In this document: one piece after another, positions 34,265 through 64,000 of the stretch | Layout: the number at the start of each line of letters is the position of its first letter | Position numbering within the stretch: position 1 is the first letter of the stretch | NCBI GenBank assembly: GCA_965222375.1 | Contig: CBDCTZ010000016.1 | Coordinates: 2,016,001-2,080,000, forward strand | Length of the DNA stretch: 64,000 nucleotides | From: Polyangiaceae bacterium | GTDB taxonomy: Bacteria; Myxococcota_A; Polyangia; Polyangiales; Polyangiaceae | Direction: 5' to 3' | Position numbers and translations under genes: made by a program | The notes under the pieces: model-generated | Seen by the model: only the letters and a program-made list of their open reading frames with translations | The model's database searches: none | What the model was told of the DNA's origin: nothing

Positions 34265-34726
34265 TGCAGCGTCAATGCACTCGGCGTGCGGCCGCACGAG
34301 ATTAGTGCCGCAATGTCGCACCATCGCCACGACCCCAAAACCAGGACGGAGTCGAGAGGGACTTTCAGACGTTTCAGGGCGCTGGTACTGTCGGTTAACA
34401 GCCAAGCCACCCAATTCTTGGTCGCATCGTTGATCTTCGGCGAGCCTGATGGAGTCAGAGCGTCTCTAGGTACGCGACCAACGCTCGGCGGTCTTCACTG
34501 GCCGGCGTTCCTGGAGCGTGCTGAGGAGCAGCGCGGTCTGCCTCGCTTCGTAACGGCCGAGTTTGAGGAGTACCTGCGCTGCGGTTTGCTCGAGCATGGG
34601 TGTCTGCGCCTTGCCTGTCGCGACGGCGGCTATTCCGAGTTGGTGGCCTTCAGCTGCAACCGACGTGGCTTCTGTCCATCTTGCCTCGGACGCCGGATGA
34701 AGGACGCTTCATGATGCATCACCTCG

Positions 34727-36811
34727 CTATGTCTTTGGAATTGTTAGGTTGAGTTGGTTCGGTGCAGGTCCAGTGTTCTTGCCTTGTCGGTATGCACGTG
34801 CTCGGGTGGTGATGCGCTCGGCTGCGTCCGAGCCCACGACATCGCTGCGAGCGAAGATCCAGGGTCCATTCGGTAGCGGATGCTGCGAGGGAATTTCGTT
34901 TCGCTGCGCTGCGCGTCGTAGCGTCTTCGGATCGACCTGAACAAGAGCTGCAGCTTCTTCGCAGGTCAGCCATTCGCCCCGATCACGCTGCTTCGAGCAC
35001 GGTTCGATCTTGTATCGATGGCGTACAGACGCGACCAGCGCCCGGCTGTAGTGGCCTCCCGTGGGCGTGCGCACACCAGCGCGCCCAAGCCATCGGGCGA
35101 TCTGCATGTCGCCCATGACGCGCGCGAGCACGCGCACGGCTTCGACGACTTCGGCAGCTGTGGTGTTGCGACGTTGGCCAGTGCGACGCTTGGGGACACG
35201 TAACTCGGTGTGCACCCCTCCCTTCCAGTGCACGACGAGGAGGATCTCGGAGCGCTCGGTGTCCACGTCAACCCAAACCTGCTCCACCACAGCGCGCGTG
35301 ATGCGCTTCTTCGTGGATGGCTTGGTCGTAGGCGCTGTCCACACGCGTTCCACGTCGCGTGCGAGCTCGAGATATCGCCCGATGTCGGGTGGGCGCGAGA
35401 CCTCTGCCCGCGTTGCCGTGGCCTCGCCGATGCGCTGCTCGACTGTGCGTACGGCTTCGAGGGCAGTATTCCATCGGCGCTCGAGTTCGACGGCCACGGT
35501 GCGGTTTTCAGGCTCGACAGCATCGTATTGACGTTCAGCGCGTTGAGCCTCGTAGCGCGCCTGTTGCAGCTGCAGTTCCAGCGCAGCCACGGCATCATCA
35601 CGTTCCGCCACGTCCTGGTCCCATGCAACGTGGGCAGCTTCGATCGCACCCGGCCGCACGACAGCGAGCACCCGCTCGACGATCTGCGCGTCCACGTCGG
35701 TTGCGCTGAACGAGATGCATCGCGGTCCACCGGAGCGGTCGTGGTCATCGTTGCATGTGTAGCGAGCAATACCTTGCTTTGTCCCGCTATAACTCACGCC
35801 CAGGCGGCGGCCGCAACGGCGACACCAAACGAGGCCGCCCAGGAGTGCAGCGCCACCCTTGGGTGCTCCTGCTGCTCCTCGCCTCTGTTCGTTCTTTGAC
35901 AACATTTGTGACGCACGCTCGAACTGCTCCCAGCTGATATATGCCTCGTGACGGTCCCGAAGCAACACCGACCACTGGTCTCGAGGCACTCGCGTAGCGG
36001 CACGTCGGGGCTGTCCGTCCACGATACGGGTGTGGACTTTGGTCCGTCCGTACACGTAGGCGCCCGCATAAATCGGATTCTTCAGTGTCCGATAGACGAA
36101 GTCGGCCGTCGGCTTCTTCCAGACAACCTCGCCACGCCGATTGCGGTTCACGGGTGTCTGAATGCCGCTCTCGCGCATCCATATCACCACCTGTCGCGCA
36201 CTACCCAGTTCGAAGAACTTGGAGAAGACTAGCTCGATGGCCTGCCGGATACGTGCGTCCGGCGCCTTCTCGAGGCGTCCATCACCTCCCACTCGGTAAC
36301 CCACCGGAACGCCCGCAACCAATTCCCCGCGCTGCGCTTTCTGCCTTTGTGCCTCCAATCCACGCATGCGTAGCAGGTCGAGCTCGTACTCGTTGAGGCT
36401 GCCCTTGAGCCCCAAGAGCAAACGGTCGTTGCTATGTCGCGGCGCATACACCGTGTCGTGATCCACCAGCAGCGTGTCGACCACGCGACAGATCTCGATG
36501 AGTTGCTGCCACTCCCGACTGTTGCGCGCGAAACGCGAAACTTCCCGGGCGGCCACGGCACCCACCTGACCAAGGGAAACGTCAGCGACCAGCCGGCGGA
36601 AACCTCTGCGCTCGACGGACCCAGCTGCCGATTTGCCCAGGTCCTCATCGATCACGTCGACCTCGCGAAACCCCAACTCGCGCAATCGGTCACGCATCGC
36701 GTATTGCTGCCGCTGGCTTTCGCGGTTGTTCATCAGCTGTTGCTGGGACGACTGGCGTACGTACAGGATCGCGCGTCGCGCCACGTGGTGTTCGCCGATC
36801 TTCTCATTCAT
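34727..36811 (-). CDS. Large serine recombinase (resolvase, recombinase, Zn-ribbon, C-terminal HTH)
   Basis: AILYVRQSS catalytic Ser, EVSRFARN, NPIYAG, CRRCGRRL, WLTCEEAAALVQV. Confidence 0.95.
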   Translation of the reverse strand: MNEKIGEHHVARRAILYVRQSSQQQLMNNRESQRQQYAMRDRLRELGFREVDVIDEDLGKSAAGSVERRGFRRLVADVSLGQVGAVAAREVSRFARNSREWQQLIEICRVVDTLLVDHDTVYAPRHSNDRLLLGLKGSLNEYELDLLRMRGLEAQRQKAQRGELVAGVPVGYRVGGDGRLEKAPDARIRQAIELVFSKFFELGSARQVVIWMRESGIQTPVNRNRRGEVVWKKPTADFVYRTLKNPIYAGAYVYGRTKVHTRIVDGQPRRAATRVPRDQWSVLLRDRHEAYISWEQFERASQMLSKNEQRRGAAGAPKGGAALLGGLVWCRRCGRRLGVSYSGTKQGIARYTCNDDHDRSGGPRCISFSATDVDAQIVERVLAVVRPGAIEAAHVAWDQDVAERDDAVAALELQLQQARYEAQRAERQYDAVEPENRTVAVELERRWNTALEAVRTVEQRIGEATATRAEVSRPPDIGRYLELARDVERVWTAPTTKPSTKKRITRAVVEQVWVDVDTERSEILLVVHWKGGVHTELRVPKRRTGQRRNTTAAEVVEAVRVLARVMGDMQIARWLGRAGVRTPTGGHYSRALVASVRHRYKIEPCSKQRDRGEWLTCEEAAALVQVDPKTLRRAAQRNEIPSQHPLPNGPWIFARSDVVGSDAAERITTRARAYRQGKNTGPAPNQLNLTIPKT

Positions 36812-36986
36812 GATGACCTCCCTTTCGTCTTCCGAGTTGTCGTCGGCTGTGTTGTCGGAGCGCTTCGGCGAGCAGCGTGATGACCTCCTTGCGCGACGCT
36901 TCGGGAAGTGCCTTCCACCTCGGAAGCGGCGGGCCGGGTTGTGGCAGAACCATTTGAACCCCGCGTCTTCGTCTGCGCTTCTTCAT
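36804..36986 (-). CDS. 60-aa accessory ORF upstream of the LSR
   Basis: WKALPEASRKEVITLLAEAL; overlaps the LSR start; same in copy 2. Confidence 0.5.
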   Translation of the reverse strand: MKKRRRRRGVQMVLPQPGPPLPRWKALPEASRKEVITLLAEALRQHSRRQLGRRKGGHHE

Positions 36987-37295
36987 GCGCCGTCAGTGCC
37001 CCCGACTCGTGCCCCATGTCCAGCGCTCGGGACTCCTCCAGCAGGCAGCGGAGCTCTTCGAGCGCGCTCATCGACACGCGCGGTTCAGCTTCGACCCGCA
37101 TCCCCGCGCAGGACACCGGGTCCAGCATCCACGCAGGGATGCTCACGAGTCGGTCCGGCGCGCCCGGGCCTACCAAACAGCGGAGCATGCCGAAAGCGCC
37201 ACGACAAACCACCGCGACGGCCTGACCATGCAACGGGTGCCACGCGTAAACGACGGTACGCACATCGGTCTTGTGCGCATCATGTTGTATTGCTG
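36808..37295 (-). CDS. Accessory ORF (DUF5372/Y4bD-like) lacking an RBS-ATG start in the integrated state
   Basis: YAWHPLHGQ..IPAWMLD..SMSALEELRCLL. Confidence 0.55.
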
Positions 37296-39297
37296 ATGGC
37301 TGACACGGCTGTGCATCTGGAAGCGCGCGTACTGCCCCGCGTTCCCATCCGTCACTGGATCTGCTCACTGCCCTGGGGACTGCGAGCGCTACTCGGCTAT
37401 GATCGCAAGCTCTGCTCCGAGGTGGTCAGCGCGCTCATGACCGAGGTGCGTCGCTCACTCCGTTCGCGCGCCAAACGACAGTTTGGGCTCGCCAGCGTAC
37501 GCAACCTGCTAACCGGTGCGCTGGTCGCGGTACAGCGCACGGACAGTGCCCTCCGACTAAACGTACACACCCACGCTCTGGTGCTCGATGGCGTGTACGC
37601 GCACCAGGGCGACGACCCTCGCGAGACCGAAGGGAACCCCGGGGCTCCGCTCGAGTTCCTCGGGCTCGACGCGCCGACCCACGCCGACATTGCCGAGGTC
37701 GCGTCACGCATCGAGAAGATCCTGAAAACGTGCGTTCCATGCGACGAAAGGCCATCTCATCGGTCAATGTCGTCGGGGAACCAGAGGCATCGACGACACC
37801 AAATACCTCGAACCCTTCTTCAACCGCGCTGATAGCTGGTGGGGCGAGGCGCGTAGGACAATCGAACTGTGAAAACGCGGGTGGGGAGGGCCGAGGCGGG
37901 TGGCAAAGAGCGGCGACGATAGCACCGGGAGCGGAACGGCTGGGTGGTTTGCAGGCGAAGGGGGGTCTTTTGCTGAGATGTCGGCGAGCCCAAGACGCAG
38001 CTCCGCCGAAGCGGCCTGCGTGTGGCGCTCAACCCCGTCTGGCCGGGAACTGGAGCACCAGTTGCTCGGGCACGGGCAGCTGGGCCCGAGGGCTCGGAGG
38101 AGCTCGCGGGCCAAGACCGTGCTCAGCGAGCAGCCGCGTGATGTCGACGCGGGTGGTCGCGATGTCAGCCCAGCGCAGCGGTCCGTTACAGCGTGGGCAG
38201 TGCTCCAGGTCCGCCCTGAAGACGTGCGCGAGGAGCCAAGCCCAGCGCTTGCGTGATGGTGGAGCGTCGTCCAACTCGTCAAGCAACTCTAACTGATCGC
38301 CGGGAGCGGGAGGAGGCTTGTCTGCGGCGTGGTCGGCGTGGTCGGCGGCCGGATTGGGGACGACTCGTTCCCGGTGCGACGAATGACTAGAGAGCACGCC
38401 GAAGTAGCGCAACATGTGGAAGCGCGGGGGCGGTACTGCCGAGACCATACGTGCAATCAGGTCGTGGGGCTCGAGAACGAGCGCGCGCGTGCCGTCCCGC
38501 CACGGCTTGTTGAAGCTGAGCTCGAGCTTGCCGTCTGTGCGTCGCTCGAGGCGGTCCTGGGCGACAGGCGGTCGCGTGATGTACTTGCAAAGTCGCTCGA
38601 CGCGGCGGCGGTCCCGCCCGTCCACGAGCTGCGCGGCGTAGATGTTGATGCCGCGCACTTCGGCGATGGGCTGGTCGGTGATGTCGGAGGCGCGAGGGCG
38701 CGCGGGGGGCTCTTGGGGGAGCAGCAATCGCAGCAGAGGCTTGCCGGCGCGCTGCCCGCTGAGGGAAATACCTTGCGCAGCAGCGGCATAGCAGCCTGCA
38801 AGAGCAGGCTCATCCAGGCAGAGCAGCGGCGGCTCGGCGTCGCCGAACTCAGGGTCGAGGCTGCGGCCGTGGGCGTGCAGGATGCGCTCGACGCGTACGG
38901 CCGTGCGTGCGGCAACCTCCGCGATGTCCGCGTGGGTTGGCGCGTCAAGCTCAAGGAACTCGAGTGGAGCGTGAGGGTCGTCTCCTTGGTGCCAGTGCAC
39001 GCCGTCGAGCACGAGTGCGTGAAAATGCACGTTTAGTCGGAGAGCACTGTCCGTGCGCTGCACCGCGACCAGCGCACCGGTCAGCAGGTTGCGCACACTG
39101 GCGAACCCGAACTGTCGTTTGGCGCGCCAACGGAGCGAGCGACGCACCTCGGTCATGAGTGCACTGACCACCTCGGAGCAGAGCTTGCGGTCATACCCCA
39201 GCAGCGCTCGCAGTCCCCAGGGCAATGAGCAGATCCAGTGACGGATGGGCACGCTTGGCAGCACCCGCGTTTCGAGATGCACAGCAGTATCGGCCAT

Positions 39298-39785
39298 CAG
39301 CAATACAACATGATGCGCACAAGACCGGTGTGCGTACCGTCGTTTACGCGTGGCACCCGTTGCATGGTCAGGCCGTCGCGGTGGTTTGTCGTGGCGCTTT
39401 CGGCATGCTCCGCTGTTTGGTAGGCCCGGGCGCGCCGGACCGACTCGTGAGCATCCCTGCGTGGATGCTGGACCCGGTGTCCTGCGCGGGGATGCGGGTC
39501 GAAGCTGAACCGCGCGTGTCGATGAGCGCGCTCGAAGAGCTCCGCTGCCTGCTGGAGGAGTCCCGAGCGCTGGACATGGGGCACGAGTCGGGGGCACTGA
39601 CGGCGCATGAAGAAGCGCAGACGAAGACGCGGGGTTCAAATGGTTCTGCCACAACCCGGCCCGCCGCTTCCGAGGTGGAAGGCACTTCCCGAAGCGTCGC
39701 GCAAGGAGGTCATCACGCTGCTCGCCGAAGCGCTCCGACAACACAGCCGACGACAACTCGGAAGACGAAAGGGAGGTCATCATGA
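39298..39785 (+). CDS. Accessory ORF (DUF5372/Y4bD-like), start predicted to be supplied on circularisation
   Basis: Same as copy 1; its TGA overlaps the LSR ATG (ATGA). Confidence 0.55.
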
Positions 39786-39789
39786 ATGA
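39607..39789 (+). CDS. 60-aa accessory ORF
   Basis: Identical to copy 1. Confidence 0.5.
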   Translation: MKKRRRRRGVQMVLPQPGPPLPRWKALPEASRKEVITLLAEALRQHSRRQLGRRKGGHHE

Positions 39790-41866
39790 GAAGATCGGCG
39801 AACACCACGTGGCGCGACGCGCGATCCTGTACGTACGCCAGTCGTCCCAGCAACAGCTGATGAACAACCGCGAAAGCCAGCGGCAGCAATACGCGATGCG
39901 TGACCGATTGCGCGAGTTGGGGTTTCGCGAGGTCGACGTGATCGATGAGGACCTGGGCAAATCGGCAGCTGGGTCCGTCGAGCGCAGAGGTTTCCGCCGG
40001 CTGGTCGCTGACGTTTCCCTTGGTCAGGTGGGTGCCGTGGCCGCCCGGGAAGTTTCGCGTTTCGCGCGCAACAGTCGGGAGTGGCAGCAACTCATCGAGA
40101 TCTGTCGCGTGGTCGACACGCTGCTGGTGGATCACGACACGGTGTATGCGCCGCGACATAGCAACGACCGTTTGCTCTTGGGGCTCAAGGGCAGCCTCAA
40201 CGAGTACGAGCTCGACCTGCTACGCATGCGTGGATTGGAGGCACAAAGGCAGAAAGCGCAGCGCGGGGAATTGGTTGCGGGCGTTCCGGTGGGTTACCGA
40301 GTGGGAGGTGATGGACGCCTCGAGAAGGCGCCGGACGCACGTATCCGGCAGGCCATCGAGCTAGTCTTCTCCAAGTTCTTCGAACTGGGTAGTGCGCGAC
40401 AGGTGGTGATATGGATGCGCGAGAGCGGCATTCAGACACCCGTGAACCGCAATCGGCGTGGCGAGGTTGTCTGGAAGAAGCCGACGGCCGACTTCGTCTA
40501 TCGGACACTGAAGAATCCGATTTATGCGGGCGCCTACGTGTACGGACGGACCAAAGTCCACACCCGTATCGTGGACGGACAGCCCCGACGTGCCGCTACG
40601 CGAGTGCCTCGAGACCAGTGGTCGGTGTTGCTTCGGGACCGTCACGAGGCATATATCAGCTGGGAGCAGTTCGAGCGTGCGTCACAAATGTTGTCAAAGA
40701 ACGAACAGAGGCGAGGAGCAGCAGGAGCACCCAAGGGTGGCGCTGCACTCCTGGGCGGCCTCGTTTGGTGTCGCCGTTGCGGCCGCCGCCTGGGCGTGAG
40801 TTATAGCGGGACAAAGCAAGGTATTGCTCGCTACACATGCAACGATGACCACGACCGCTCCGGTGGACCGCGATGCATCTCGTTCAGCGCAACCGACGTG
40901 GACGCGCAGATCGTCGAGCGGGTGCTCGCTGTCGTGCGGCCGGGTGCGATCGAAGCTGCCCACGTTGCATGGGACCAGGACGTGGCGGAACGTGATGATG
41001 CCGTGGCTGCGCTGGAACTGCAGCTGCAACAGGCGCGCTACGAGGCTCAACGCGCTGAACGTCAATACGATGCTGTCGAGCCTGAAAACCGCACCGTGGC
41101 CGTCGAACTCGAGCGCCGATGGAATACTGCCCTCGAAGCCGTACGCACAGTCGAGCAGCGCATCGGCGAGGCCACGGCAACGCGGGCAGAGGTCTCGCGC
41201 CCACCCGACATCGGGCGATATCTCGAGCTCGCACGCGACGTGGAACGCGTGTGGACAGCGCCTACGACCAAGCCATCCACGAAGAAACGCATCACGCGCG
41301 CTGTGGTGGAGCAGGTTTGGGTTGACGTGGACACCGAGCGCTCCGAGATCCTCCTCGTCGTGCACTGGAAGGGAGGGGTGCACACCGAGTTACGTGTCCC
41401 CAAGCGTCGCACTGGCCAACGTCGCAACACCACAGCTGCCGAAGTCGTCGAAGCCGTGCGCGTGCTCGCGCGCGTCATGGGCGACATGCAGATCGCCCGA
41501 TGGCTTGGGCGCGCTGGTGTGCGCACGCCCACGGGAGGCCACTACAGCCGGGCGCTGGTCGCGTCTGTACGCCATCGATACAAGATCGAACCGTGCTCGA
41601 AGCAGCGTGATCGGGGCGAATGGCTGACCTGCGAAGAAGCTGCAGCTCTTGTTCAGGTCGATCCGAAGACGCTACGACGCGCAGCGCAGCGAAACGAAAT
41701 TCCCTCGCAGCATCCGCTACCGAATGGACCCTGGATCTTCGCTCGCAGCGATGTCGTGGGCTCGGACGCAGCCGAGCGCATCACCACCCGAGCACGTGCA
41801 TACCGACAAGGCAAGAACACTGGACCTGCACCGAACCAACTCAACCTAACAATTCCAAAGACATAG
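39782..41866 (+). CDS. Large serine recombinase
   Basis: Protein identical to copy 1; GGGAGG RBS. Confidence 0.95.
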   Translation: MNEKIGEHHVARRAILYVRQSSQQQLMNNRESQRQQYAMRDRLRELGFREVDVIDEDLGKSAAGSVERRGFRRLVADVSLGQVGAVAAREVSRFARNSREWQQLIEICRVVDTLLVDHDTVYAPRHSNDRLLLGLKGSLNEYELDLLRMRGLEAQRQKAQRGELVAGVPVGYRVGGDGRLEKAPDARIRQAIELVFSKFFELGSARQVVIWMRESGIQTPVNRNRRGEVVWKKPTADFVYRTLKNPIYAGAYVYGRTKVHTRIVDGQPRRAATRVPRDQWSVLLRDRHEAYISWEQFERASQMLSKNEQRRGAAGAPKGGAALLGGLVWCRRCGRRLGVSYSGTKQGIARYTCNDDHDRSGGPRCISFSATDVDAQIVERVLAVVRPGAIEAAHVAWDQDVAERDDAVAALELQLQQARYEAQRAERQYDAVEPENRTVAVELERRWNTALEAVRTVEQRIGEATATRAEVSRPPDIGRYLELARDVERVWTAPTTKPSTKKRITRAVVEQVWVDVDTERSEILLVVHWKGGVHTELRVPKRRTGQRRNTTAAEVVEAVRVLARVMGDMQIARWLGRAGVRTPTGGHYSRALVASVRHRYKIEPCSKQRDRGEWLTCEEAAALVQVDPKTLRRAAQRNEIPSQHPLPNGPWIFARSDVVGSDAAERITTRARAYRQGKNTGPAPNQLNLTIPKT

Positions 41867-42207
41867 CGAGGTGATGCATCATGAAGCGTCCTTCATGCGA
41901 CGCCCGAGGCAAGATGGACAAAAGCCGCGTCGCTTACAGCTGAAGGCGACCAGCTCAGAGTAACCGCAGTCGCGACAAGCAAGGCGCAAGCAACCATGCT
42001 CGAGCAAGCCGCAGCGCAGGTACTCCTCAAACTCGGCAGTCACGAAGCGAGGCAGACCGCCGTGCTCCTCCGCGCGCTCGAGGAACGCCGGCCAGTGCTT
42101 CTGCACCGTCTGGTAGAGCACGGTGGTTTCAGGGCGATGACGGAACCGGGAATGCTCGGGCTCGCGGCGAGGGTGTGCGTGCGCTGGGTGACCCACGCCA
42201 TGGCGTT

Positions 42208-46365: not shown

Positions 46366-47054
46366 GCATTCCCGGTTCCGTCATCGCCCTGAAACCACCG
46401 TGCTCTACCAGACGGTGCAGAAGAAGTCGTTCTTCGCACCGAGCACGAGTCGTGCCCGAACCGCCCGCCGACGATGCCACACACAAGCCCCCTCCCGCTC
46501 GAGGCGACCAGCTAGAGTTGCTCGACGAGTCAGACGACGCTCCGCCCTCTCGCAAGCGTTGGGCCTGGCTGCTCGCGCACGTCTTCAGGGCGGACATGGA
46601 GCACTGCCCTCGCTGCAACGGCCCGTTACGACGCGCTTCGTGATACCCGACGGGGTGATGGGCCGAGATTGCGACCACCCGCGCCGACATCACGCGGCTC
46701 CTGGCTGAGCAAGACCCTTGGGAATCCCACCCCTTCGGGTGTTCCGCAGCGGCTCCGACGGGGGACGGCCTTGGCCCGCGAGCTCCTCCGTGCCCTCGGG
46801 CTCAGCTGCCCGTGCCCGACCAGCTGCTGCTCCTGTTCCCGGGCAGCCCGATTGAGTGACCCGCACCGCGGTTCGGCCGACTTGCATCCTGCGCCTCGCC
46901 GACATCTCCGAAAAACCACCCTTTCGGCGCCCGGCTCACACGTCTGTCCGCTCCCCCTCCAAGCGGCTCCGCTGTTGGCCGCCCTGCCCAAACCGAAAAC
47001 TGCCTCCCCTACGCTCCCCCTCCCTCCTTTTCACACTTCGAATGTCCTACGCGC
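46366..47054 (+). mobile_element. Internally deleted non-autonomous IS91-like derivative
   Basis: RFRHRPETTVLYQTVQK jumps at ~46423 to the C-terminal HRARVVP..RKRWAWLLAHVF..CPRCNG; ends TTCGAATGTCCTACGCGC. Confidence 0.85.
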
Positions 47055-47930: not shown

Positions 47931-48179
47931 GGGTGGTCTTCTTTCCGATCTGACCGCCCGTCGTGCGCCCTCCGCAACGCAACTTGCCACCGCGGTTCGG
48001 CCGACTTGCATCGTGCGCCTCGCCGACATCTCCGAAAAACCACCCTTTCGGCGCCCGGCTCACCCGTCTGTCCGCTCCCGATGCAATCGTCCCCGCCGTT
48101 GGCCGCCCCTCACAACCCGAACCCCTGCTTGCCCACAACCTCCACACCCGCGTTTTCACAGTTCGAATGTCCTACGCGC
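47930..48179 (+). mobile_element. Solo IS91-like oriIS end
   Basis: 47988-48179 matches 46864-47054; ends TTTTCACAGTTCGAATGTCCTACGCGC; left limit approximate. Confidence 0.8.
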
Positions 48180-61930: not shown

Positions 61931-62235
61931 GACGCCGTTGCGTGGGTCACCCAGCGCACGCACACCCTCGCCGCGAGCCCGAGCGCTTGCGTCATCGCCC
62001 GGAGACAACTGTCCTCTACCGGACGGTGGCCGAGCACTGGCCGGCGTTCCTGGAGCGTGCTGAGGAGCAGGGTGGTCTGCCTCGCTTCGTGACGGCCGAG
62101 TTCGAGGAGTACCTGCGCTGCGGTTTGCTGGAGCATGGCTGTTTGCGTCTTGCCTGTCGCGACTGCGGCTACTCTGAGCTGGTCGCCTTCAGCTGCAAGC
62201 GGCGCGGATTCTGTCCCTCTTGCCTCGGTCGCCGC

Positions 62236-64000
62236 ATGAAGGACGCTTCATGATGCATCACCTCGCTATGTCTTTGGAATTGTTAGGTTGAGTTGGTTCG
62301 GTGCAGGTCCAGTGTTCTTGCCTTGTCGGTATGCACGTGCTCGGGTGGTGATGCGCTCGGCTGCGTCCGAGCCCACGACATCGCTGCGAGCGAAGATCCA
62401 GGGTCCATTCGGTAGCGGATGCTGCGAGGGAATTTCGTTTCGCTGCGCTGCGCGTCGTAGCGTCTTCGGATCGACCTGAACAAGAGCTGCAGCTTCTTCG
62501 CAGGTCAGCCATTCGCCCCGATCACGCTGCTTCGAGCACGGTTCGATCTTGTATCGATGGCGTACAGACGCGACCAGCGCCCGGCTGTAGTGGCCTCCCG
62601 TGGGCGTGCGCACACCAGCGCGCCCAAGCCATCGGGCGATCTGCATGTCGCCCATGACGCGCGCGAGCACGCGCACGGCTTCGACGACTTCGGCAGCTGT
62701 GGTGTTGCGACGTTGGCCAGTGCGACGCTTGGGGACACGTAACTCGGTGTGCACCCCTCCCTTCCAGTGCACGACGAGGAGGATCTCGGAGCGCTCGGTG
62801 TCCACGTCAACCCAAACCTGCTCCACCACAGCGCGCGTGATGCGTTTCTTCGTGGATGGCTTGGTCGTAGGCGCTGTCCACACGCGTTCCACGTCGCGTG
62901 CGAGCTCGAGATATCGCCCGATGTCGGGTGGGCGCGAGACCTCTGCCCGCGTTGCCGTGGCCTCGCCGATGCGCTGCTCGACTGTGCGTACGGCTTCGAG
63001 GGCAGTATTCCATCGGCGCTCGAGTTCGACGGCCACGGTGCGGTTTTCAGGCTCGACAGCATCGTATTGACGTTCAGCGCGTTGAGCCTCGTAGCGCGCC
63101 TGTTGCAGCTGCAGTTCCAGCGCAGCCACGGCATCATCACGTTCCGCCACGTCCTGGTCCCATGCAACGTGGGCAGCTTCGATCGCACCCGGCCGCACGA
63201 CAGCGAGCACCCGCTCGACGATCTGCGCGTCCACGTCGGTTGCGCTGAACGAGATGCATCGCGGTCCACCGGAGCGGTCGTGGTCATCGTTGCATGTGTA
63301 GCGAGCAATACCTTGCTTTGTCCCGCTATAACTCACGCCCAGGCGGCGGCCGCAACGGCGACACCAAACGAGGCCGCCCAGGAGTGCAGCGCCACCCTTG
63401 GGTGCTCCTGCTGCTCCTCGCCTCTGTTCGTTCTTTGACAACATTTGTGACGCACGCTCGAACTGCTCCCAGCTGATATATGCCTCGTGACGGTCCCGAA
63501 GCAACACCGACCACTGGTCTCGAGGCACTCGCGTAGCGGCACGTCGGGGCTGTCCGTCCACGATACGGGTGTGGACTTTGGTCCGTCCGTACACGTAGGC
63601 GCCCGCATAAATCGGATTCTTCAGTGTCCGATAGACGAAGTCGGCCGTCGGCTTCTTCCAGACAACCTCGCCACGCCGATTGCGGTTCACGGGTGTCTGA
63701 ATGCCGCTCTCGCGCATCCATATCACCACCTGTCGCGCACTACCCAGTTCGAAGAACTTGGAGAAGACTAGCTCGATGGCCTGCCGGATACGTGCGTCCG
63801 GCGCCTTCTCGAGGCGTCCATCACCTCCCACTCGGTAACCCACCGGAACGCCCGCAACCAATTCCCCGCGCTGCGCTTTCTGCCTTTGTGCCTCCAATCC
63901 ACGCATGCGTAGCAGGTCGAGCTCGTACTCGTTGAGGCTGCCCTTGAGCCCCAAGAGCAAACGGTCGTTGCTATGTCGCGGCGCATACACCGTGTCGTGA
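62236..64000 (-). mobile_element. LSR element copy 3 (runs off window)
   Basis: ATG core at 62236-62238 followed by AAGGACGCTTCATGATGC, as in copy 1. Confidence 0.92.
62266..64000 (-). CDS. Large serine recombinase (5' end outside window)
   Basis: Protein identical to copies 1 and 2 over the visible part. Confidence 0.95.
   Translation of the reverse strand, partial: HDTVYAPRHSNDRLLLGLKGSLNEYELDLLRMRGLEAQRQKAQRGELVAGVPVGYRVGGDGRLEKAPDARIRQAIELVFSKFFELGSARQVVIWMRESGIQTPVNRNRRGEVVWKKPTADFVYRTLKNPIYAGAYVYGRTKVHTRIVDGQPRRAATRVPRDQWSVLLRDRHEAYISWEQFERASQMLSKNEQRRGAAGAPKGGAALLGGLVWCRRCGRRLGVSYSGTKQGIARYTCNDDHDRSGGPRCISFSATDVDAQIVERVLAVVRPGAIEAAHVAWDQDVAERDDAVAALELQLQQARYEAQRAERQYDAVEPENRTVAVELERRWNTALEAVRTVEQRIGEATATRAEVSRPPDIGRYLELARDVERVWTAPTTKPSTKKRITRAVVEQVWVDVDTERSEILLVVHWKGGVHTELRVPKRRTGQRRNTTAAEVVEAVRVLARVMGDMQIARWLGRAGVRTPTGGHYSRALVASVRHRYKIEPCSKQRDRGEWLTCEEAAALVQVDPKTLRRAAQRNEIPSQHPLPNGPWIFARSDVVGSDAAERITTRARAYRQGKNTGPAPNQLNLTIPKT

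Follow-up and report, generated by a model that had tools for sequence, protein, structure and literature searches.

We examined a 64,000-nt stretch of the genome of a Polyangiaceae bacterium (here called the window) in which genes for IS91-type transposases are interrupted by copies of a 2602-bp element that encodes a large serine recombinase (LSR). We conclude, with a probability that we put at roughly 85%, that this is a cargo-free integrative element of two genes, moved by its own LSR into IS91-type transposase genes. A BLAST search of the whole genome (10.56 Mb in 16 contigs) finds five copies at 99.85-100% identity, with only 5 of the 2602 positions varying among them: copies A (C16:2050697-2053298), B (C16:2055295-2057896) and C (C16:2078236-2080837, which runs off the window end), and, outside the window, copies D (C16:2364484-2367085) and E (C14:677570-680171). 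In all five, the insertion point is the Met codon of the motif C-L-G-R-R-M-A-D in an IS91-type transposase gene, and the genes of the element are antisense to the transposase that they interrupt, that is, in a single orientation. The left flank always ends in C-L-G-R-R and the right flank always starts with A-D-(T/V)-A-V-H-L-E. Each end of the repeated unit carries an ATG, the sole trinucleotide that all five copies have at both junctions, and the two flanks of the element read through as one gene, with a short shared core and without a target-site duplication. Five insertions at one nucleotide position of a 10.6-Mb genome cannot be the work of chance.

Much of this had been claimed from the letters of the window alone. 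That sequence-only reading placed the 2602-bp element at 34697-37298, 39295-41896 and from 62236 onward, coordinates that prove exact, and the two SNPs that it noticed among copies A, B and C are confirmed at element positions 610 and 2569. The codon triplets that it quoted on either side of the ATG are as it stated them, and Pfam bears out both of its identifications, an LSR element (Resolvase, Recombinase, Zn_ribbon_recom) and IS91-like transposases (Zn_Tnp_IS91 and Y2_Tnp in the flanks). Its count of three copies is right for the window and short of the five in the genome. The insertion that it described as always in the Met codon of CLGRR-M-ADTA holds for the codon and for the antisense orientation; the motif itself is not constant, with copy C reading C-L-G-R-R-M-A-D-V-A.

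Quantitative comparison of the copies and their flanks, which the same reading had proposed as a check, shows that the two are not equally similar: pairwise flank identity among copies is 70-98%, against 99.85-100% for the elements, and the near-identity of the elements ends exactly at the junctions. At the left junction, the first flank difference lies 1-7 nt away for every pair among A, B, C and D; at the right junction it lies 3-6 nt away for every pair that includes A or C, and B, D and E are alike over the first 128 nt. Measured in 50-nt windows, element copy A matches at 50/50 positions, except for 49/50 in two windows against B and in one against C, and the flanks match at 40-47/50 over 200 nt on the left and ~330 nt on the right, beyond which similarity is lost (past copy C, only 61 nt are transposase-like). 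A repeat finder returns the same structure as an inverted repeat of 3128 nt at 98% (34496-37623 and 38970-42097) and a second pair at 40132-42148 and 61984-64000. The differences between flanks are mostly at third codon positions: over the final 198 nt on the left, these account for 31 of 35 variable sites, and just 4 of the 66 residues change; over the first 60 nt on the right, they account for 10 of 16. This pattern implies a target that is held by protein constraint while its DNA drifts, in agreement with the earlier idea of a degenerate attachment site (attB) kept by the encoded protein. Since nearly identical elements stand in diverged flanks, the element would have arrived later than the divergence of the transposases and separately in each copy, which argues for site-specific integration on at least four independent occasions (A, B, C and D). 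The independence that the sequence-only reading had claimed is therefore upheld for these four; D and E are not independent of one another.

In copies D and E alike, LSR codon 301 has changed from TCA to TGA, a stop; the two also have two further SNPs in common, and their flanks are identical for 200 nt on the left and ~290 nt on the right before falling to 64-88% per 50-nt window. The identical tracts sit inside transposase genes that are otherwise 85-90% identical. Because the shared stop inactivates the LSR, the duplication that links D and E did not require their own recombinase; exchange between transposase genes, through homologous recombination or gene conversion, probably spread a dead copy. 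The flank identity of B and E is a mosaic, which shows that gene conversion is common among the transposase copies. Four kilobases from copy D, at C16:2359099-2360280 (minus strand), a fragment of a second LSR (35% identical over residues 276-670) lies among more IS91 fragments.

It is natural to ask whether homologous recombination or gene conversion could account for all of the spread among IS91 copies, with no site-specific integration in this genome. The stop and identical flanks shared by D and E, the 128 nt of right flank common to B, D and E, and the mosaic flanks all speak for such a history. We nevertheless judge it improbable: the flanks of copies A to D begin to differ 1-7 nt from the left junction, those of A and C 3-6 nt from the right one, which leaves no co-converted tract, and the tracts would need to have ended at the identical nucleotide on both sides four times over. 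Moreover, relatives of the element lie in non-homologous genes, such as the DUF559 and cNMP-binding genes discussed below.

The interrupted genes themselves bear on a second question. The two halves around copy B carry PF14319 (Zn_Tnp_IS91) and PF04986 (Y2_Tnp), so the host belongs to the IS91 family, with a zinc-binding N-terminus and a Y2 HUH-type catalytic domain. This transposase is free of stops apart from the insertion, and the C-terminal part of the copy D transposase gives one unbroken alignment. Conservative recombination inside a codon would restore such frames exactly, as expected of a regulated intervening element of the skin/SPbeta type, a reversible switch whose excision restores the transposase when it is needed. 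However, the same family occupies IstB, tyrosine recombinases, IS4, IS66 and rve transposases and, in another genome of the genus (G002), ordinary genes; empty C-L-G-R-R-M-A-D sites occur in relatives without the element; two of the copies are dead; and A and C lie in truncated transposase remnants. We accordingly give a switch as little chance as spread by conversion alone.

Still less probable is a single ancient insertion into an IS91 element that then multiplied and diverged as a composite, with concerted evolution keeping the inserted elements identical; the one site and one orientation of all copies would fit, but on either side identity drops from >99.8% to 70-93% precisely at the junction, and no mechanism is known that limits homogenisation to the element boundaries at four loci. 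An assembly artefact, that is, a collapsed repeat misplaced into transposase-like sequence, is barely credible: the element does form its own 2607-nt contig among short-read contigs, but a 153-nt contig spans the left junction of copy A with 0 differences, contigs with 12-15 differences match the junctions of the other copies, and in run X3 the depth of the element is ~five times that of its flanks (evidence weakened in that the best-matching runs, which were examined as contigs only, may be the assembly's own data), and a 93%-identical relative from another study has the same flanks.

That relative comes from run X5, whose contigs (~93% identical) hold the element together with 32-34 nt of transposase-like flank on both sides. 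A further contig of 5.7 kb from this run matches the right flank (37309-37368) and is preceded by sequence that encodes part of the N-terminal motif and does not belong to the element, a hint of an unoccupied site in which only 30 letters are visible. In run X7, which carries another organism label and belongs to another study, two 151-nt contigs match the recombinase without differences (window 35361-35511 and 35550-35700); these matches could reflect horizontal spread or cross-contamination, the coverage being too low to tell.

A more distant case of the same insertion comes from a metagenome contig (L097) whose LSR is 78% identical over all 694 residues. Immediately past the 3' end of the element, the antisense strand of L097 reads S-C-K-R-R-G-V-C-P-S-C-N-A-R-R-M, so the Met codon hit is the same one, here in another IS91 subfamily. 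Over the 15 nt that precede the ATG, the DNA of L097 departs from the sites of our genome at up to eight positions.

We now consider the two genes of the element; the coordinates of its parts are collected in Table 1.

Table 1. Copies of the 2602-bp element in the window, their internal features and the transposase pieces that flank them.
Feature	Position in window	Strand	Evidence
Copy A, N-terminal transposase piece with zinc-binding domain, ending in C-L-G-R-R	34286..34696	+	Pfam Zn_Tnp_IS91, E 1.5e-09, profile 6-64/90; junction sequence
Element copy A, 2602 bp including the ATG of both ends; genes on the minus strand	34697..37298	-	
Copy A, 3' terminal 30 nt past the recombinase stop: GAGGTG (Shine-Dalgarno-like), ATG and inverted-repeat arm GCATCATG	34697..34726	-	
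LSR gene (694 aa), preceded by a GGGAGG ribosome-binding site of its own	34727..36811	-	Pfam
ORF2, 162 codons inside the element, distant DUF5372-like accessory gene	36811..37296	-	
Copy A, 5' terminal region: second inverted-repeat arm CATGATGC (element's strand), 11 nt from the shared trinucleotide	37272..37298	-	
Copy A, transposase continuation A-D-T-A-V-H-L-E, truncated after ~140 residues	37299..37832	+	tblastn 84%, residues 1-139; translation
Copy B, last 421 codons of an IS91-type transposase gene that is intact apart from the insertion	38029..39294	-	Pfam Y2_Tnp, 4.4e-21
Element copy B, inverted relative to copy A; ORF2 39297-39782, recombinase 39782-41866	39295..41896	+	
Copy B, N-terminal transposase piece	41897..42196	-	Pfam Zn_Tnp_IS91, 7.4e-13
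Copy C, N-terminal transposase piece from a third IS91-type gene, diverged	61942..62235	+	tblastn 93%; junction
Element copy C, cut by the window end and complete in the genome (C16:2078236-2080837)	62236..64000	-	

The 694-residue protein combines Resolvase (PF00239, E 2.5e-20, residues 14-163), Recombinase (PF07508, E 1.2e-19, residues 190-307) and Zn_ribbon_recom (PF13408, E 4.4e-07, residues 323-381) domains, which identifies it as an LSR, and carries an additional C-terminal HTH_17 match (residues 614-658, E 4.9e-06). The catalytic motif R19-Q20-S21 is invariant in an alignment of five LSR sequences. Beyond this gene, the 2602 bp have room only for a second open reading frame (ORF2), and hence for no cargo. 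ORF2 lies upstream of the LSR gene in the same orientation, its stop overlaps the LSR start (ATGA) and its frame is open up to the 5' edge of the element; in 67 of 75 family loci, the frame ahead of the LSR stays open for 150 codons or more. Four residues (Y17, P54, W56 and L79) are invariant across 33 family sequences. ORF2 has no Pfam match at E <= 0.001. Its match to DUF5372 is weak in the window copy (E 0.046, 14.2 bits against a cut-off of 25), and 21 of the 33 aligned family members match this domain at E <= 0.05, the best of them at 3.6e-08. An AlphaFold model (mean pLDDT 73.6) consists of a small barrel (residues 9-60), a helix (residues 76-95) and a disordered basic tail. Foldseek returns no match to this model at E <= 0.001; the best hits in VIA-align (Z 6.0, rmsd 1.9, 51 aligned residues) are small SH3/KOW-like barrels, an arrangement that is common and uninformative on function.

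The ends of the element show how these genes may be coupled to its movement. Each end carries one of two 8-nt inverted arms (GCATCATG and its complement) at 11 nt from the core, and the same distance, with an equal dinucleotide at both junctions, recurs in 30 of the 34 relatives with reconstructable ends. Beyond the LSR stop, the final 30 nt of the window element contain GAGGTG, followed after 7 nt by an ATG that stands 16 nt ahead of the junction. When we join the two ends computationally, as they would be in a circle, this terminal ATG falls in frame with ORF2 and creates a gene of 167 codons; the ATG is likewise in frame on joining the ends in 28 of 34 relatives. Because the ribosome-binding site and ATG are supplied only by the joined ends, we infer that full-length ORF2 would be made from the excised circle only, where it could aid integration, block re-excision or regulate the LSR. 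The terminal start of the circle-assembled ORF2 is ATA in L019 and L045 (and, by eye, in L040); decay of these copies and use of a non-standard start are two possible reasons. In three relatives (copy b of G002, L069 and L072) the dinucleotides at the two junctions are one base apart, which hints that the recombinase may tolerate one core mismatch. A core of CG was considered for L069 and set aside as doubtful: the terminal ATG falls out of frame, and both the 11-nt geometry of the family and the equal core GA of L070 speak against it.

Putting these observations together, we propose the following cycle. The attB would be the part of an IS91-type transposase gene coding for F-C-P-S-C-L-G-R-R-M-A-D-T-A-V-H-L-E, with the crossover within the Met codon; since Met has no synonymous codon, diverged gene copies would always offer the same core. 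The LSR would excise the element as a circle, restoring the transposase gene, and the circle would join the 3' end (GAGGTG and ATG) in frame to ORF2, so that the full DUF5372-like protein would be made. Integration would follow once the LSR pairs a new attB with the attachment site of the circle (attP, whose two arms each lie 11 nt from the core). In this genome, attP x attB recombination would account for at least four integrations, and homologous recombination between transposase copies for the fifth copy (D/E). The element would thereby disable the insertion sequence (IS) that hosts it and gain a target that is multi-copy, travels horizontally and can be disrupted at no cost to the cell. 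Its status as a hyperparasite, which the sequence-only reading had proposed, is suggested by position: L097 is hit in the same codon, and relatives lie beside mobile-element genes at 54 of 80 loci.

If attB is this motif, its occupancy is of interest, and a count of empty against occupied sites had been proposed along with the earlier claims. A Pfam model search finds six Zn_Tnp_IS91 matches in the genome, of which five stop at profile position 69 and are the occupied sites. The sixth, on contig C15, is uninterrupted to profile position 85 and empty; it encodes C-N-A-R-R-M-R-S-T, is only 60% identical and lies within a decayed gene. With five sites cut and a different motif on C15, no empty C-L-G-R-R-M-A-D site remains in this genome. 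Among related genomes, 23 of 40 carry a total of 61 Zn_Tnp_IS91 matches, and none of the 40 holds an LSR more than 48% identical. The motif C-x2-C-x2-3-R-R-M is intact at 17 of the 31 loci read, 16 of them in other genomes, including C-L-G-R-R-M-A-D-T-A-V-H-L-E in G016 and C-I-G-R-R-M-A-E-T-A-V-H-L-E in G002, of the same genus. Intact motifs in relatives that lack the element mean that empty targets are common where the element is absent. Among the matches listed, a stop at position 69 occurs in G011 only (a few others also fall short of the profile end); this gene proved uninterrupted and decayed. In G036 (L003:1-420), a 39%-identical recombinase gene ends just upstream, on the same strand, of an IS91 N-terminal fragment that starts abruptly at H-G-F-A-L-L-R-C-D-A-C and retains an intact C-L-G-R-R-M-A-E-T-A. 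This recombinase may belong to a lineage that hits another point of the same zinc domain.

Within the window, the surroundings of copy B hold further repeats. A 172-nt inverted repeat of 84% identity (38167-38338 and 46466-46637) overlaps the 3' end of the copy B transposase gene, a 134-nt direct repeat of 90% lies at 46864-46997 and 47988-48121, and tblastn finds a transposase C-terminal fragment at ~46449-46844. This repeat-rich part looks like a graveyard of IS91 remnants.

To place the element among its relatives, we searched species-representative genomes with a profile of five LSRs, which yielded at least 573 confirmed loci, the best 80 of which we examined, and metagenomes, where the best 80 of at least 585 confirmed loci were screened for IS91 flanks only. 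Homologous LSRs at 38-52% identity number in the hundreds. The genomic loci span Acidobacteriota, Alphaproteobacteria, Planctomycetota, Verrucomicrobiota and others, many of them on contigs of 2.6-2.9 kb; paired copies in relatives give a unit length of 2545-2621 bp. At each of the 80 genomic loci, the two longest flanking open reading frames per side (254 in all) were compared with Pfam. A mobile-element gene flanks the LSR at 54 of the 80, the others having no match or an ordinary gene. The most frequent target is IstB_IS21 (32/80 loci), which runs antisense to the LSR and is interrupted at profile position ~98-101 of 238, followed by Phage_integrase, split at ~150-155 of 172 (10/80 loci, 8 of them then with an IS91-type transposase). 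IS4-type DDE domains (7 loci), IS66-family genes (3), IS110 (1) and a reverse transcriptase (1) make up further targets. Two IstB-targeting copies have additional pieces nearby, namely a Resolvase-domain fragment in the left flank (L072:2301-3017, minus strand) and an rve integrase core to the right (L060:5237-5950, minus strand); these arrangements have the look of elements nested in one another or inserted secondarily.

Confinement to mobile elements is not universal across lineages. In G002, whose LSR is 48% identical, two copies of 2621 bp, 100% identical to each other (L013:6510-9130 and L014:6454-9074), lie in ordinary genes, one encoding DUF559 (profile split at 57/59 of 109) and the other a cNMP-binding domain (49/52 of 89). 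The latter host is a mechanosensitive-channel gene. On plasmids, 548 records carry a homologue annotated only as 'recombinase family protein' or 'hypothetical protein'. In the closest of these (L095 and L096, on pRL10 and pACRY02, 52% identity), the annotated pair is a recombinase and a 65-aa hypothetical protein, which corresponds to the end of ORF2 with an internal start taken as its beginning. On visual inspection, both sit in antisense orientation within the part of an rve-type transposase gene that encodes W-x-x-D-Y-N; these transposase genes are absent from the gene table. The 52%-identical plasmid relatives H3 and H5 lie outside IS91 genes.

In a FastTree phylogeny of 83 LSRs, the window LSR pairs with L097 at 100% local support, and these two form part of a group of six, whose other members are G002, L022 and two plasmid proteins located in rve-type transposase genes. 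Those that target tyrosine recombinases form one clade. Mapped on the tree, target labels require 21 changes, compared with 46.2 when shuffled (0 of 200 shuffles as low), a clustering that is inflated by near-copies. The window element would thus be one specialised lineage of a large family in which each lineage homes to a conserved motif of some mobile-element gene. We lean towards a broader statement, namely that a large superfamily of cargo-free LSR elements spans phyla as obligate parasites of mobile elements, each recognising the DNA for an invariant motif of a transposition protein, crossing over on codons that cannot drift, and carrying a circle-completed gene that senses the free state. 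The motifs in question, held with the same leaning rather than firm conviction, would be the IS91 zinc domain, the Walker A of IstB, the L-L-G-H box of tyrosine recombinases and the catalytic motifs of IS4, IS66 and rve transposases.

Several points weigh against the cycle proposed for the window element, in part or in whole. The circle, an empty donor site and the activity of the recombinase were not observed, and the runs, being contigs, are unable to show circles; none of the matching runs listed is of RNA. Not every copy arose by integration, given the recombinase stop and identical flanks that D and E share. The geometry of 11+2+11 gives a core of AT, which is palindromic, and a palindromic core in serine integrases is expected not to fix orientation, yet the five copies, L097 and the X5 relative all share one orientation; either the core is the neighbouring TG (also common to both junctions) or polarity is set by something else. 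The one other Zn_Tnp_IS91 site of the genome, that on C15, stands empty. As for ORF2, the match of the window copy to DUF5372 is below the Pfam cut-off, and translation may begin at an internal start, the plasmid relatives having an NCBI annotation for the 65-aa tail only.

The closest described relative of the window element appears to be NGRIS-4 of the Sinorhizobium fredii NGR234 plasmid pNGR234a. This plasmid has two copies of a 3333-bp repeat, 99.9% identical, which from size and position we take to be NGRIS-4. The repeat has four genes, in the order DUF5372, an HTH protein, a small open reading frame annotated as 'transposase' and a 694-aa recombinase that is 36% identical to the window LSR (residues 4-641). 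Its DUF5372 gene comes first, in the place of the DUF5372-like ORF2 of the window element, and its LSR last; like the window element, it sits antisense inside the transposase genes of other elements. It is 0.7 kb longer, with two small genes added between DUF5372 and the LSR. Its insertion points read A-N-T-P/K-G-R-V-E-R and, in the IS21 istA gene, R-P-R-R-P/K-A-K-V-E (the slash marks the junction), so that its target is the catalytic K-G-(K/R)-V-E region of rve-type DDE and IS21 transposases, whereas that of the window element is IS91. Literature searches returned no paper on NGRIS-4 or on DUF5372, and no description of a family of LSR mini-elements in IS91, IstB or other transposase genes.

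Among better-known systems, Tn4451/Tn4453 (TnpX) and Tn5397 (TndX) are similar in that an LSR alone moves a discrete element, presumably via a circle. In Tn4451, joining of the ends creates a promoter for tnpX, which resembles the completion of ORF2 at the joined ends of the window element. The TnpX/TndX transposons carry resistance and mobilisation cargo, are several kilobases longer and use many loosely defined sites; the window element differs in having no cargo and one precise site (5/5 copies, and the same codon in L097). Insertion into the sequence of another mobile element, which travels and multiplies, is itself familiar. Group II introns and IS1111-type elements insert inside IS elements or attC sites. 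Tn5053/Tn402, the 'res-site hunters' (PMC7765201), likewise target other mobile elements. These three groups use, respectively, retrohoming, DEDD transposases and DDE transposases, in contrast to a serine recombinase that reads a coding motif of a transposase.

With regard to LSRs in general, passages of Durrant et al. 2022 (PMC10083194) report that these enzymes often target conserved sites in cellular genes, and name a Mg-chelatase-like protease, a prolyl isomerase and competence genes as targets of phages, ICEs (integrative and conjugative elements) and the like. The window element resembles that set, in which distantly related LSRs share a single conserved coding-sequence site as target and specificity is inferred from many diverged attB sites; transposase targets and cargo-free 2.6-kb elements are not mentioned in those passages. 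The same passages give DUF4368 in 63% of the TndX recombinase clade (PMC10083194). The window LSR has no DUF4368 among its Pfam matches at E <= 0.01, unlike typical TnpX/TndX recombinases.

The genome thus amounts to a natural experiment in which one recombinase has met at least four naturally diverged targets, so that the positions of attB that are free to vary can be read directly; the window locus is the clearest case we have seen of one recombinase meeting several naturally diverged coding-sequence targets. An ORF2 start that is assembled only upon excision would give an element simple means of telling its free from its integrated state. Judged by its sequences, the family appears widespread and specialised in invading mobile-element genes, and we found no description of it in the literature searched. 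If what we propose for the window element is true for the family, then insertion sequences have specific parasites, natural killers and hitch-hikers at once, which would bear on what limits IS copy number. It would also bear on the frequent 'recombinase family protein' genes beside transposase pseudogenes in rhizobial and environmental genomes, and would mean that there are many compact serine integrases with predictable, diverse and wobble-tolerant coding-sequence targets.

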